Assembly (NCBI GenBank): GCA_031364765.1
Contig: JANLWV010000382.1
Coordinates: forward strand, 1 to 34,523
Reading direction: 5' to 3'
Length of the DNA: 34,523 nucleotides
From: Vicinamibacteria bacterium
Lineage (GTDB): Bacteria > Acidobacteriota > Vicinamibacteria > Fen-336 > JAGNNV01
A program made the position numbers and the translations under genes. Of the stretch, positions 4,463-31,924 are shown one piece after another (the stretch's first letter is position 1; each line of letters begins with the position of its first letter). The notes under the pieces are model-generated. The model had not been told where the DNA came from, did not search any database, and saw only the letters and a program-made list of their open reading frames with translations.

Positions 4463-4478
4463 AGCAAGCGGGATGCCA
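4463..4478 (-). promoter_or_regulatory. sigma54 -24/-12 promoter
   Basis: TGGCATCCCGCTTGCT (GG-N10-GC), oriented toward ATG 4450. Confidence 0.8.
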
Positions 4479-4721
4479 TGAGTGCCCCGCTTGCCCCCGT
4501 TGACGCTAGAGGCCCAAATGGGGCCTGGGACGTGTTTTGCACATGGAAAGTCGCCTTTCGGCGCAGGTCGTGACGAAGCGTTTTGTAGATTCGACCGAAG
4601 TTTCCTGGCGCCTGAAGAGTGCTCCGGCGCTTGATCGCGGACTACGGCCTTCGGGAACCTCATCGCATCCTGGATGAAGACCGGGACGTTGTTTCCCGCG
4701 ATGGCCGAGTTCCCTCCGCGA

Positions 4722-5990
4722 TCAGAACGCAGGCCCCATCTTGAGGTGCAACTGTGTGCCCTCAACGCTGCGCATGACATCGATACGGAAACGGACCTTC
4801 CGATGCGACTTCAGGCGGATCCCGGCGCCGTAGCTTCGCTGCAGGTTATGGCGATCGAAATCGCTCGTGGCGGAGAACACCTTGCCGGTCTCGTAAATGA
4901 GCGCGAACTCGATCTTCGGCCACAACTCGAGGCGATATTCGGCGGCCAGGGCCAGGAGCTTATTGTCGCGGAACCGGGAGGAACTGTAACCCCGGAGAAG
5001 AGTGCCGCGACCCAGCGTGTGCTGCATGTAAAAAGGCACGCTGCTGCCCGCGTCCGGTTTGTCGAGCGACGCGATCTGGCGCAGCGCAACGACGTGCCGG
5101 TTCGAGCCGAGGGGCAGGTACTCGCGAGCGTCGACGGCGGTTCGGCTGAACTGGAAGGCGTTCCCATGACGGTCGTCAAAACGCGAAACCGCGACGCCGA
5201 GAGAGACGCCGCGATGGGGGTTGCCCGGCTCGTCGCGGAGCTCGAGCCAAGCGCCGCCGGACATGTGCAGGAAATCAGGAGACCGGAGGAGGCCCGGTGC
5301 AGTCCGTTCGTTGTTGGAGAGTTCGATGTTGGGGATGGCGGAGTCGAGCCCTGGGCCGATCGAGGTCCGGAGCACGCCGGCGCGGCCCATGACGGAGAGG
5401 CGCTTGACGCGGAAGCGAACGATGCCCTCGTAAAGACCGTCCTTCAGGCGGTAATCGCTGTGGCTCAAGCGCGAGGACGTGGGACCGAGTCCGTAGAAAT
5501 CCTCCCGCGGATAGTCGCGATATCGGGCGGACGCGTAGATGTTGAAGCCTGGCGGCGCCGCCGACGTCTTCTCGATGTCCGAGAGAGGGAACAGGGCGCT
5601 TGTGCCCGTCTCGACGCGGGGCAGGCGCTGGCCGTCGTGGGGAACGAGGCCCACCTGCAGGTCGTAGTACTGGTACCTGAATATGGAGTACGCAGCCGAC
5701 GCGTGGATGTCGATGGGCGAGCCGCCGATATCAGGCGTCCAGAAATGGAGCATCGGTGCTATTCCGCCGCCGGAACTCAAGATGTCGACCGCCGGCGAAA
5801 AGGGACCCCAGTGCGGGCCACGGCCCCCCTTGTCTTCATCATCGTTAAAGAATGACCGGATCGTCCGCTTCACGAGGCCAGGGCGCTCGACCTTCGGCTC
5901 GTCGTCTTTGTCTTTGGCGTCCTTGGCGAAGGAATCGGCTGGCATGAGTCCAGTCCACAAGGCGGCAAGCACGACAGCAGTTCGTGACAT
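4722..5990 (-). CDS. Omp85/BamA-TamA family beta-barrel lacking POTRA and passenger domains
   Basis: Signal peptide; LG(R)G..LRGY...RFRD loop-6 motif, AEYR, YETGKVF, SYGAGIR and C-terminal Phe. Confidence 0.8.
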   Translation of the reverse strand: MSRTAVVLAALWTGLMPADSFAKDAKDKDDEPKVERPGLVKRTIRSFFNDDEDKGGRGPHWGPFSPAVDILSSGGGIAPMLHFWTPDIGGSPIDIHASAAYSIFRYQYYDLQVGLVPHDGQRLPRVETGTSALFPLSDIEKTSAAPPGFNIYASARYRDYPREDFYGLGPTSSRLSHSDYRLKDGLYEGIVRFRVKRLSVMGRAGVLRTSIGPGLDSAIPNIELSNNERTAPGLLRSPDFLHMSGGAWLELRDEPGNPHRGVSLGVAVSRFDDRHGNAFQFSRTAVDAREYLPLGSNRHVVALRQIASLDKPDAGSSVPFYMQHTLGRGTLLRGYSSSRFRDNKLLALAAEYRLELWPKIEFALIYETGKVFSATSDFDRHNLQRSYGAGIRLKSHRKVRFRIDVMRSVEGTQLHLKMGPAF

Positions 5991-6074
5991 TTTCCGATAG
6001 TCTCCTTAAGCAGACGGGGACGCCCCAACCGGCGTGACGTCCGTAAACGGATGCGACCGTCTGACCAGTGGCTG

Positions 6075-6090
6075 AGCAACCCACGTGCCA
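6075..6090 (-). promoter_or_regulatory. sigma54 -24/-12 promoter
   Basis: TGGCACGTGGGTTGCT, upstream of the Omp85 gene. Confidence 0.85.
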
Positions 6091-6268
6091 GGGGGGCGAA
6101 CGCAGGCGCTTTTTTCGGGCCTATCTTCCTGCTTGAGGACCGTCTTAACCGCGAGGCCTAGCTTCAGTCTCCCATGACCCGGGCGTTCGCGGCTCCCCCG
6201 GGGCGGGGGCGGGCCGCCCCGCCCATGGCGGAATGTACAAAGAGCCGAGGTGGGCTCACGCCCGTTTG

Positions 6269-6284
6269 TGGCATACCCCTTGCT
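6269..6284 (+). promoter_or_regulatory. sigma54 -24/-12 promoter
   Basis: TGGCATACCCCTTGCT, upstream of the OmpA lipoprotein gene. Confidence 0.82.
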
Positions 6285-6360
6285 CAATTTCCGCGGACAG
6301 ACGTCTGCGGGGCGAACTTTCGTTCGTGGCCGCCATATGGACGTCTAGAGGAGATAAATC

Positions 6361-30302: not shown

Positions 30303-30347
30303 GGTTCCATCTCGATCACTGCGCTTCCTCTAGAACGCCGCCAAGGT

Positions 30348-31472
30348 CTAGACGGAGCAGCGTCGGTCGACGATCTGGGCCCGCTTCATCTTGAAGGCCT
30401 TGATCCAGTCATCCACTCGGGCGAGAGCAGGTTCCTTTTCGGGATCGCTGCTTGGGTCTGAGGAACGGCGCTTGACGCGTGCGTTCTCGAAGAGGTCGCG
30501 GAGCTGGGCGTCGGTGAGTTGCACGAGCAAACCGGCCAGAAACGCCCGGCCCGCCTCGCTGATCTCTGGGTTGCTGAGGCTGCCCGTGAACGAGCCCTTG
30601 AGCCGCGCCACGCACGCCTCGCCGTCTTTCCACACCGGGACCTGGGCCCAGGTATCCAGACTCACGCTGTTCTTGTTCTGGTTCAAAAGATCGGCGTGAC
30701 CGAACGTGAGGCCGAGATCGCTGATCATGAGGATGGGCGCCTTACAACCGGTTTTCCCAACCTCCTGTCCTTCGGGGCAAAGCAGGCGCTGATTCGAGGA
30801 TTTGTTGTCCGTGTGCTGCACGAACGCCGCCAACAATTTCAACGCGTCGCGTTGCGCGCGCGCGCTCTTGACGGCCTCGGGCCCGATGCCTTCGAGCTCC
30901 GACCATTTCCAGCCGGAATCTCTCTTCGTTTCCATGCTCCGCCCGGGCAGTTTCCGCTCGATGGCCGACGGGTCGAAGACCACCACGGACGCCGCTCCCT
31001 CCGGGCCCTTCTTCGGATCCGTTGGACAGCCGTGACACTTGACGCGCACCGGATACATCCGGTCGGCGGCAAAACCCAGAGCCCAGAAGAGTCGACTCGC
31101 CAATACCTCGCCAAAAACTTCGGCGTTGCGCGGGCCGTACTTGACCTTCACTTCCTTGCCGGGGCTGGTCTCACAGGTGAATTTGGGCGAGTGACCGGAT
31201 TGTTCCTTTTCCTTGTATTCGCAAGTCACCCACTCGTTGGACGTGAACGCACCGTCGACATCGGGCCCGGTCTTGAAGTTCACGTTGGGGACGTTCGTGG
31301 GCGACCAGACCGACGCGCGGCTGATGGCCTCCAGTCTCTCCTTTTCCGTCAGGGCTTCCCCCGGCGGCAGGGGCTTCACGTGGGCGCATCCGCCGAGGGT
31401 CAGGCCGAGCCCGAGGAGGACAGCCGCGCTGAGTTTGAGACTTTGGGGCTCTCGGGCGGCAACCGGGGTCAC
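30348..31472 (-). CDS. Kinase-like lipoprotein paralog A
   Basis: GTG at 31472 overlaps the upstream stop (GTGA). Lipobox LGGC, VKVKYG, AEVFGE, HTDNKSSN and DLG. Confidence 0.8.
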   Translation of the reverse strand: MTPVAAREPQSLKLSAAVLLGLGLTLGGCAHVKPLPPGEALTEKERLEAISRASVWSPTNVPNVNFKTGPDVDGAFTSNEWVTCEYKEKEQSGHSPKFTCETSPGKEVKVKYGPRNAEVFGEVLASRLFWALGFAADRMYPVRVKCHGCPTDPKKGPEGAASVVVFDPSAIERKLPGRSMETKRDSGWKWSELEGIGPEAVKSARAQRDALKLLAAFVQHTDNKSSNQRLLCPEGQEVGKTGCKAPILMISDLGLTFGHADLLNQNKNSVSLDTWAQVPVWKDGEACVARLKGSFTGSLSNPEISEAGRAFLAGLLVQLTDAQLRDLFENARVKRRSSDPSSDPEKEPALARVDDWIKAFKMKRAQIVDRRCSV

Positions 31473-31690
31473 GAGCGCTTGCCACTGCCGGCGAGAAGAA
31501 CTCCGCCCACGACCGCGACGACCACACCGGCCCACAACGGAACGTTCACCCGTTCCTTGTCCTTCACTTCAATCTCGATGGGTCCGAGTTTCACGTGGTC
31601 GGTGTCCTTGGTGTACGTGAACCCGCCGTAGGCCAGGGCCAGGATGCCCAGGGCCAGCAGGACCGCTCCGATGAGTTTTGTTCCTTGCAT
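31469..31690 (-). CDS. Small 2-TM membrane protein (DUF3185-like)
   Basis: LLALGILALAYGGFTYT...KLGPIEI...VPLWAG pattern. Confidence 0.8.
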   Translation of the reverse strand: MQGTKLIGAVLLALGILALAYGGFTYTKDTDHVKLGPIEIEVKDKERVNVPLWAGVVVAVVGGVLLAGSGKRS

Positions 31691-31722
31691 GTCTTGTCAT
31701 CTCACTTTCACCCCCGGGAGAG

Positions 31723-31738
31723 AGCAAAGGCCGTGCCG
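31723..31738 (-). promoter_or_regulatory. sigma54 -24/-12 promoter
   Basis: CGGCACGGCCTTTGCT, upstream of the small protein-kinase trio operon. Confidence 0.8.
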
Positions 31739-31908
31739 CCCGGTCGCGCCCGAATTCGCCACTTGGCGGGCCAGGAGGGCGATTCAAGCCGGGGGATTGA
31801 AGGCGGTTTCTACACGGTACAACGTCTGAAAAAGAAGCGTGACGTTTGGATGGCCCGTCGCCCCCTTTTGTCGAAGGTTGGCGGCCATGCCCACCCTTGA
31901 CCACCGGT

Positions 31909-31924
31909 TGGCATCCGGCTTGCT
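31909..31924 (+). promoter_or_regulatory. sigma54 -24/-12 promoter
   Basis: TGGCATCCGGCTTGCT, upstream of ATG 31940. Confidence 0.82.

Follow-up and report, generated by a model that had tools for sequence, protein, structure and literature searches.

The stretch of DNA analysed here, referred to as the window, is an entire contig of 34,523 nt (C495) from an uncultured soil acidobacterium, placed in the class Vicinamibacteria by the relatives of its proteins, and it represents 0.9% of a metagenome-assembled draft genome of 3.84 Mb, which consists of 551 contigs and is 92.6% complete. Over about 30 kb, it harbours a cluster of 14 transcription units lying behind −24/−12 elements, the type of promoter that needs sigma-54 (RpoN) and an ATP-driven activator. 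These units comprise envelope and stress-type genes, a KaiC–KaiB–KaiB–kinase operon and a set of signalling genes encoding three hybrid histidine kinases, a REC-Hpt protein, a REC-LuxR response regulator and a bacterial enhancer-binding protein (bEBP) with a REC-AAA+-HTH (helix-turn-helix) architecture. Most of the products carry a signal peptide or membrane segments, including two Omp85 proteins, OmpA, M48, BON, the glycine-zipper proteins, YeaQ, tm52 and tm73, and CsbD, an oxidoreductase and KaiBC are the cytoplasmic stress-type members. The best explanation for the whole, and in our view a fairly likely one, is a conserved sigma-54 regulon cluster of Vicinamibacteria. The coordinates of all features are collected in Table 1.

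The consensus recognized by sigma-54 is TGGCAC-N5-TTGCW, with the GG and GC doublets exactly 10 nt apart. A search of both strands of the window with the pattern GGC-N7-TTGCW returned 17 matches, compared with 2.80 ± 1.64 (maximum 8) in 100 dinucleotide-preserving shuffles, none of which reached 17. On a gene map built from codon-position GC and Pfam matches, intergenic DNA accounts for 3503 of the 34,523 nt (10.1%), and 14 of the 17 matches are fully intergenic (binomial P = 6e-12); the motif is thus not equally dense in coding or shuffled DNA. The three coding matches (6899−, 10295+ and 22166−) all read GGCC, score at most 10.6 bits or less than 7 bits, and fit chance expectation. With a 23-nt weight matrix trained on the window's own sites, the 14 intergenic sites score 17.5–27.4 bits and stand clearly apart from the rest of the window, where no position exceeds 12.3 bits. 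All 14 fit the search pattern, 11 of them fit GGCAY-N5-TTGCW and six TGGCAY-N5-TTGCW. Each faces the start of the adjacent gene from 12–117 nt ahead, distances that carry some error because the scripted gene calls are crude (longest open reading frame (ORF) plus a GC3 filter, with heuristic starts). Orientation is informative in the five non-divergent spacers (4463−, 14049+, 19842+, 21075+ and 23252−), and it is correct in all five. No sigma-70-consensus promoter was found in these spacers, the three distinct matches being intragenic and at chance level, in a scan that assumes an E. coli-like consensus.

A previous sequence-only reading of the window had listed 13 of these sites, described as intergenic and pointing at the adjacent gene. 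All 13 exist, and the description holds for them and for a 14th intergenic site of equal quality that the list had missed, on the minus strand at 23252–23266, 76 nt ahead of the BON gene. The minus-strand coordinates were exact, but those of the plus strand were one base low, the correct positions being 6270, 8956, 14049, 19161, 19842, 21075 and 31910. The accompanying statement that essentially every transcription unit has such a promoter is true of 14 of the 15 units with a visible 5′ end, the exception being the DUF4956-PLD-hyp224-metallophosphatase operon. A degenerate copy had been proposed for this operon, but it lacks the invariant GG and has been left out of the count; it is probably not a functional sigma-54 promoter, and no site was found ahead of the DUF4956 homologue in the related locus L004. 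The 14 sites themselves are, with high probability, functional sigma-54 promoters. Three of them (19842, 21075 and 23766) belong to a subclass, TGGCYCG-N3-TCTTGCT, in which the spacer is partly conserved and the fifth position lacks A. It is also present in loci L002, L003, L005, L006, L016, L018, L042, L043, L048, L086 and L097, recurs ahead of CsbD, glycine-zipper and YeaQ-type genes in several genomes, and may represent a class of distinct strength or regulation.

At the scale of the genome, the window holds 17 of the 195 loose matches (GGC-N7-TTGCW), 6 of the 16 matches to TGGCAY-N5-TTGCW and, within 0.9% of the bases, 11 of the 29 strict matches to GGCAY-N5-TTGCW (P = 9e-16). A reversed pattern, used as a composition control, gave 22 matches genome-wide against the 29 real ones, so the strict matches outside the window are probably mostly due to chance, and the concentration inside it is therefore higher than the raw counts show. 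The rpoN gene that such a regulon requires is present: contig C167 carries a Sigma54_DBD match at 11317–11790 on the minus strand (204 bits), in a frame that runs off the contig end with the N-terminus outside. The genome encodes about ten strong Sigma54_activat matches, exactly one of which lies in the window, and no RpoS above the family cut-off. The GC content of the window (0.644; 0.607–0.679 per kb) is close to that of the genome (0.637), and Pfam scans of the window, which is a whole contig with the cluster borders beyond view, detected no integrase or transposase. The word 'island' is used here for a gene cluster only, the evidence falling short of horizontal acquisition.

The single activator of the window is an NtrC-type bEBP, and the proposal of the sequence-only reading that an embedded bEBP has its own sigma-54 promoter is borne out by a complete REC-AAA+-HTH_8 protein behind promoter 8956. 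Its Pfam matches are Response_reg (79.6 bits), Sigma54_activat (PF00158, 220 bits), AAA_lid_14 and HTH_8 (51.6 bits), and it contains the Walker A motif GETGTGKE, the motif LFLDEV and the loop GSFTGA; serine at the second position of the GAFTGA loop is a tolerated natural variant. Compared with the NCBIfam equivalogs, the protein scores 368.8 bits for ntrC (cut-off 558.6), 367.6 for AtoC (714), 333.2 for ZraR (760) and 273.1 for PspF (443.55), and as it remains below every cut-off it belongs to an unnamed subfamily. Since the bEBP is the last gene of an operon behind a sigma-54 promoter, autoregulation is plausible. That this local bEBP is the main activator of the promoters appears reasonably probable, in view of its linkage to and co-occurrence with them and of the candidate enhancer motif that accompanies 10 of the 14.

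Related loci (L numbers) were gathered via the bEBP (80 loci), the M48 peptidase and the patatin fusion, and they support the conservation in orthologous loci that the sequence-only reading had proposed to check: despite rearrangement, homologues of the window's regulon genes in other genomes lie behind a total of 42 sigma-54-type sites. One comparison, at a threshold of 14 bits, gave 14 of these sites (BON 5, the 468-aa glycine-zipper protein 3, and CsbD, Omp85, tm52, HK1, KaiC and bEBP 1 each), and a second, at 13 bits, gave 28 (M48 9, tm73 7, patatin 4, OmpA 3, YeaQ 2, BON 2 and CsbD 1). Among the close M48 orthologue loci L083–L089, only L083 lacks a site. Gene order varies widely among the loci, the sole stable block being tm52-HK1-HK2-bEBP, and this module adjoins sigma-54-promoted stress genes across genera. 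As the sites are kept while the gene order is shuffled, the promoters travel with their genes, as expected of functional elements. Alignment of the upstream regions shows no invariant positions apart from the GG and GC blocks, and the core TGGCCGCGATCTTGCT is found in identical form ahead of the oxidoreductase orthologues in L005 and L048 despite lower matrix scores. The complete genome G021, from another family, has eight strict sites within 13 kb beside a 66%-identical bEBP, and the KaiC homologue that adjoins a bEBP homologue in L013 also has a sigma-54 site. In more distant bEBP loci, sites are located ahead of DUF3309, DUF5670, a CBS pair, BON, Ku, DUF892 and Transgly_assoc proteins. A bEBP orthologue of at least 76% identity was found in at least 9 of the 30 relatives searched (6 of 17 from the same genus and 3 of 13 others), many of these genomes being incomplete. 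Within the genus, an M48 orthologue (71–78% identity) and a bEBP orthologue (at least 85%) each occur in at least 6 of 17 genomes, in sets that overlap largely but not fully, and neither was found, among the candidates scored, in several relatives of 92–97% completeness. The island genes are thus patchy among the relatives searched.

A second element recurs upstream of the promoters. TCTACA or its complement is present in 6 of the 10 promoter regions of the window, where 0.39 would be expected, and one more region contains the variant TGTACA. When a matrix trained only on instances outside the window, from which the bit scores of the enhancer cores in Table 1 derive, was applied to the genome, five of the 40 best hits were in the window, all five in promoter regions. 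Over the window and the related loci, TCTACA occurs within 200 bp upstream of 44 of the 84 sigma-54 sites of at least 15 bits, a count in which 4 of the 45 underlying motif instances are false positives within the bEBP HTH-coding sequence. By comparison, it occurs in 4% of the 200-bp windows of the genome and at 1 of 19 other sigma-54-like sites of the same genome. The motif counts leave out the distant loci L054–L081 (36–46% bEBP identity, except L067), the window copies L082, L096 and L136 and the duplicate L095, and an alignment of 42 instances also dropped those in the bEBP HTH-coding sequence (AAGAC-TCTACA, coding KTLYN). The extended motif, tGYAnWW-TCTACA-AW, forms a 13-bp dyad that is imperfect, although a few loci have the perfect version TGTAGA-n-TCTACA; it is positioned 22–143 bp upstream of the GG, with one case at 258 bp. 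The strict dyad TGYA-N5-TACA has no hit in the window, the left half being degenerate in this genome. One further pair of sigma-54 site and motif was observed on contig C526.

Several identities were considered for this element. A sigma-70-family −10 box (TACAAW) was rejected, the 42-instance alignment having no information at the −35 distance and the commonest form ending in A. A general IHF-like element or other architectural protein is unlikely because the motif is specific to this regulon, as its near absence from the other sigma-54-like sites of the genome indicates. A site for the REC-LuxR regulator is also unlikely, no REC-LuxR match at E ≤ 1e-30 being found in G003 or G021, both of which keep the motif. 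Because these two genomes (G021 through L012) retain the motif and the bEBP without a close REC-LuxR homologue, the bEBP is the best candidate for the binder, and we infer that the TCTACA dyad may be the activator's enhancer. The best sigma-54-type sites outside the window (C455:1563−, C292:7004+, C497:966−, C256:7948+ and C210:995−) precede two YkuD L,D-transpeptidases, another BON protein, a YpfJ-type Zn-peptidase and an AI-2E transporter, and TCTACA is found at none of them. These sites may form another sigma-54 set, directed at the envelope and dependent on different activators.

Table 1. Predicted sigma-54 promoters, candidate enhancer cores and other features of the window (aa, amino acids; HK, histidine kinase)
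Feature	Position	Strand	Downstream unit or location	Remarks
Promoter TGGCATCCCGCTTGCT	4463–4477	−	hyp246-hyp228-hyp335 operon (4450 down to 1947)	Strongest site, 27.4 bits; ATG 12 nt after motif
Promoter	6075–6089	−	Omp85-family gene 4722–5990(−)	Omp85 homologue in L006 also has a site
Promoter	6270–6284	+	OmpA/glycine-zipper lipoprotein 6361–7044	Kept at homologues in L086, L087, L099
Promoter	8783–8797	−	Secreted M48 peptidase 7136–8695(−)	Kept in 6/7 close orthologue loci and 3 more distant
Promoter	8956–8970	+	Regulator operon tm52-kinase-kinase-bEBP	Kept before tm52/HK1 in L008, L009
tm52	9070–9228	+	Regulator operon	52-aa membrane peptide
HK1 (DUF4118-HK-REC)	9254–10867	+	Regulator operon	DUF4118-HisKA-HATPase-REC
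HK2 (PAS-HK-REC)	10864–12420	+	Regulator operon	PAS-HisKA-HATPase-REC
NtrC-type bEBP	12380–13753	+	Regulator operon	REC (Asp near residue 66), AAA+ sigma-54 interaction domain, HTH_8
Promoter	14049–14063	+	kaiC 14179–15669, kaiB (domain about 15750–15990), kaiB 16012–16356, PAS-HK-REC (ORF 16238–18316)	
Promoter	19089–19103	−	REC-Hpt phosphotransfer protein 18231–18989(−)	
Promoter	19161–19175	+	REC-LuxR response regulator 19198–19830	ATG 22 nt after motif
Promoter TGGCCGCGATCTTGCT	19842–19856	+	NADP-type oxidoreductase 19974–20993	
Promoter	21075–21089	+	468-aa secreted glycine-zipper protein 21160–22566	Kept in L002, L003, L006
Promoter	23252–23266	−	BON (OsmY-like) protein 22639–23175(−)	Kept in L002, L003, L004, L043, L049, L106, L110
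Promoter	23766–23780	−	CsbD 23501–23668(−)	Kept in L004, L086
Degenerate copy CGCAT-N5-TTGCT	23985–23999	+	Before DUF4956-PLD-hyp224-metallophosphatase operon (23995–28097)	No GG; 7.4 bits; probably not functional
Promoter	31723–31737	−	tm73 31469–31690 and three paralogous unknown proteins (30348–31472, 29199–30302, 28057–29175), all minus strand	
Promoter	31910–31924	+	YeaQ/GlsB-type protein 31940–32215 and patatin-Omp85 fusion 32219–34411	ATG 15 nt after motif
YqjE, YqjK, two small ORFs, Dps	3–1929	+	YqjE 3–356, YqjK 353–682, Dps 1465–1929	Pfam; island edge, running off contig
Candidate enhancer core TCTACA	4584–4589	−	112 bp upstream of GG of promoter 4463(−)	18.1 bits
Variant core TGTACA	6234–6239		Between divergent promoters 6075(−)/6270(+)	11.3 bits
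Candidate enhancer core TCTACA	8877–8882	+	Midway between divergent 8783(−)/8956(+)	18.1 bits
Candidate enhancer core TCTACA	13791–13796	+	258 bp upstream of kai promoter	19.8 bits
Candidate enhancer core TCTACA	21030–21035	+	45 bp upstream of 21075(+)	14.5 bits; also at orthologues in L002, L003, L006
Candidate enhancer core TCTACA	23883–23888	−	108 bp upstream of csbD promoter	21.2 bits
Candidate enhancer core TCTACA	31809–31814	+	Between divergent 31723(−)/31910(+)	11.0 bits

Several of the units behind these promoters deserve comment. The three proteins encoded at 1947–4450 on the minus strand (335, 228 and 246 aa) are kept beside the bEBP in L012, L013, L016, L017 and L021, and no family was found for them in Pfam, NCBIfam or a protein atlas comparison. 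Two consecutive kaiB genes follow kaiC in the window (15450–16356), and the kaiC-kaiB-kaiB order also occurs beside the bEBP homologue in L013. The window CsbD is the sole CsbD match found in the genome. Homologues of tm73, a 73-aa membrane protein, have a site ahead of them in seven loci. The three tandem paralogues that follow it (372, 367 and 374 aa) are conserved as a block in relatives; they match no Pfam or NCBIfam family, and the atlas returned only Acidobacteriota clusters labelled 'hypothetical'. Kinase-like leads for these paralogues (Fam20C, HipA, PI3/PI4 kinase) scored 0.82–0.85, below the trusted level, and were discarded. A site ahead of YeaQ or patatin homologues is kept in L097, L098, L100, L101, L106 and L110. 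The 730-aa product of the last gene joins a patatin-like phospholipase to an Omp85-type barrel, and a 64%-identical paralogue is encoded at C292:2600–4789, only the island copy having a sigma-54 promoter.

At the opposite end of the window lie YqjE and YqjK, which the sequence-only reading had named among its stress-type genes. Contig C36, whose end (3271–3488) overlaps window positions 1–220 at about 95–97% identity, encodes yqjD and the beginning of yqjE. This contig probably adjoins the window on the left, or else represents a strain variant that broke the assembly. No sigma-54 site of at least 12 bits was found upstream of yqjD/E in any of seven loci (contig C36 and six relatives). YqjDEK-Dps was rejected as part of the regulon on this ground, and Dps likewise does not count among its members.

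A subset of the promoters lies unusually close to the start codon. Among the 65 sites of at least 17 bits with a called downstream ORF, to which this count was restricted, 13 have a start codon, mostly ATG, 10–15 nt after TTGCW, and in seven the distance is exactly 12 nt; mRNAs made from such promoters would therefore be leaderless or have a leader of 0–3 nt. This class includes 4463(−) and 31910(+) in the window, members on contigs C455, C497, C210 and C292, and others in loci L086, L110, L142 and L043. The hyp246-hyp228-hyp335 mRNA is probably leaderless, since the ATG is only 12 nt past the motif. M48 and patatin orthologues alternate between the short-distance form and a leader of 69–87 nt. 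In its relevant passages, a transcription start site mapping paper (PMC3616915) does not link leaderless mRNAs to sigma-54.

Taken together, these elements suggest a circuit. The hybrid kinases, one with a DUF4118 membrane domain, two with PAS domains and one co-transcribed with KaiBC, would sense stress or energy signals and feed a phosphorelay in which the Hpt protein hands the signal on to the bEBP receiver domain. Once phosphorylated, the bEBP would assemble on the upstream tGYAnWW-TCTACA dyad and spend ATP to open the closed complex formed by the sigma-54 holoenzyme at each promoter. Such a circuit would amplify itself, because one promoter type serves the operon of the bEBP (8956), the gene for the Hpt protein (19089) and the kai operon (14049), and the promoters with an ATG 10–15 nt after TTGCW would yield leaderless or nearly leaderless mRNAs. 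The output may, by a modest preference, be a general-stress and envelope-protection programme, judging from gene content. The sequence-only reading had called it a general stress response: the gene content fits (CsbD, BON, YeaQ/GlsB, OmpA, M48 and KaiBC, joined in relatives by DUF3309, DUF5670, DUF892, Ku and CBS), but the label itself is derived from that content. Only tentatively can the complete proposal be put forward, namely that Vicinamibacteria and related Acidobacteriota achieve general stress control via sigma-54 in place of a stress sigma of the sigma-70 family, with a KaiBC-fed phosphorelay and one bEBP acting on TCTACA enhancers at no fewer than 14 direct promoters, part of whose transcripts are leaderless. 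No paper found in the literature searched describes this combination.

The evidence is wholly computational and unusually coherent, and a number of observations weigh against a single stress regulon under one activator. The DUF4956-PLD operon inside the island and the flanking YqjDEK-Dps operon have no convincing sigma-54 site. Genome scans with the weight matrix favour the window, on whose sites the matrix was trained, a bias of which the regex counts are free; the genomes compared are relatives rather than independent samples, and conservation is for this reason given as counts and not as tests. The 'general stress' label is borrowed from gene families that have a known regulation in other phyla only. 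The most radical alternative, that the repeated 16-nt element is the operator of another protein, a dispersed repeat or a chance pattern, could draw on the three sites (19842, 21075 and 23766) that read TGGCC rather than TGGCA, but it is highly improbable. Conservation is confined to the GG and GC blocks and the exact distance between them, and spacers and flanks vary, which points to a bipartite promoter and not a repeat; moreover, the match to the consensus is close, the placement is intergenic and strictly oriented, none of the 100 shuffles reaches the count, and rpoN and bEBP genes are present.

The main rival accepts real sigma-54 promoters but sees them as a mosaic served by several bEBPs without a master activator, TCTACA being bound by an unlinked regulator or an architectural protein. 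Besides the island bEBP, the genome has about nine others among its roughly ten strong bEBP genes, and as envelope genes are also found behind its other, motif-free sigma-54 sites, several activators may share one theme. Four of the 14 promoters (19089−, 19161+, 19842+ and 23252−) have no TCTACA-like element nearby, two have the TGTACA variant only and one has TCTACA 258 bp away. The motif is mostly one strong half-site, unusual for a bEBP enhancer, its distance varies from 22 to 258 bp, and its binder is a candidate only. We nevertheless consider this mosaic unlikely: the island contains a sole bEBP, whose orthologue stays beside sigma-54-promoted stress genes across genera and arrangements, the association of the motif with the promoters of the island, and not with sigma-54 sites elsewhere, speaks against a general architectural protein, and REC-LuxR, the second DNA-binding regulator of the locus, lacks conservation in the genomes that keep the motif. 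A further alternative differs from the general-stress interpretation in degree rather than in kind, proposing a narrow programme of envelope remodelling, desiccation or dormancy in which several stress-named families simply happen to be envelope proteins. Most products do have signal peptides or membrane segments, L,D-transpeptidases and a periplasmic Zn-peptidase lie behind sigma-54 sites outside the window, and Francke et al. 2011 (PMC3162934) argue, in the passages concerned, that sigma-54 generally controls the cell exterior. The cytoplasmic stress-type members CsbD, oxidoreductase and KaiBC, and Ku, DUF892 and CBS in related loci, speak for a broader role, and the narrow programme is rather unlikely.

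General stress regulons are known under RpoS in Gammaproteobacteria, SigB in Bacillota and EcfG/PhyR in Alphaproteobacteria, all of which use sigma-70-family factors controlled by proteolysis or partner switching, and the CsbD, BON/OsmY and YeaQ/GlsB-type families belong to RpoS, SigB or EcfG regulons in other phyla. The present cluster resembles these systems in its overlapping families (CsbD, BON/OsmY, YeaQ/GlsB-type, Dps-like and DUF892, Ku and small membrane stress proteins) and in that one regulator would turn on many scattered units. It differs in its −24/−12 promoters, which depend on sigma-54 and an ATP-driven activator, in a genome with no RpoS above the cut-off. In E. coli, ZraSR and PspF/Psp also produce envelope-stress outputs via sigma-54 and a bEBP, an output that is deduced here from the genes, and ZraR, likewise a response regulator of REC-AAA+-HTH type, controls its own expression from a pair of divergent sigma-54 promoters. 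The window bEBP is not an orthologue of ZraR or PspF, its scores of 333 and 273 bits being far below the respective cut-offs (760 and 443.55). Psp and Zra drive one or two promoters, in contrast to the 14 or more found here in one cluster with three hybrid kinases, an Hpt protein and a KaiBC module. Non-circadian KaiBC stress modules are also known, for instance in Legionella. As in that type of module, a kaiC-kaiB operon is found here in a non-phototroph, linked to a histidine kinase and among stress genes, but the operon of the window lies behind a sigma-54 promoter, adjoins the bEBP (in L013 as well) and includes two kaiB copies.

Sigma-54 and NtrC-type activators are placed atop adaptive or stress programmes in the Borrelia Rrp2-RpoN-RpoS cascade and in the bEBP networks of Myxococcus xanthus, such as PexR in peroxide stress, in the relevant passages of PMC3037356 and PMC12754779. 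In Borrelia, sigma-54 drives a single promoter, that of rpoS, and RpoS does the rest, unlike the present promoters, which lie directly on effectors. In the Myxococcus examples the targets are single genes or cascades of development rather than a cluster of general-stress-type genes. The regulon also fits the comparative-genomic link of sigma-54 to cell exterior and envelope functions drawn in passages of Francke et al. 2011 (PMC3162934), whose main text contains none of 'Acidobacteri-', osmY, csbD or 'envelope stress' and uses 'general stress' only as SigB/RpoS background. In the literature searched, outside of which most subscription journals lie, neither a sigma-54 regulon of CsbD/BON/YeaQ-type genes nor a sigma-54 study in Acidobacteria or Vicinamibacteria was found. 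Sigma-54 envelope stress systems (Psp, ZraSR) and sigma-54 atop adaptive cascades are already known, and what differs here is the scale, with at least 14 promoters in one cluster, the position of promoters directly on CsbD/BON/YeaQ-type genes and the inclusion of a KaiBC operon in the regulon.

Acidobacteriota are among the most abundant soil bacteria, and to our knowledge the regulation of their stress survival is essentially unknown. The analysis places some ten Acidobacteriota-specific proteins without known function in a regulatory context and yields a concrete prediction that comprises 14 promoters, a candidate enhancer and a named activator. If the proposed circuit is true, the KaiBC system of a non-phototroph would be tied to a defined transcriptional output, and these bacteria would possess a fourth, mechanistically different solution to general stress beside RpoS, SigB and EcfG, one that would be silent without ATP-driven activation, inherently switch-like and self-amplifying.

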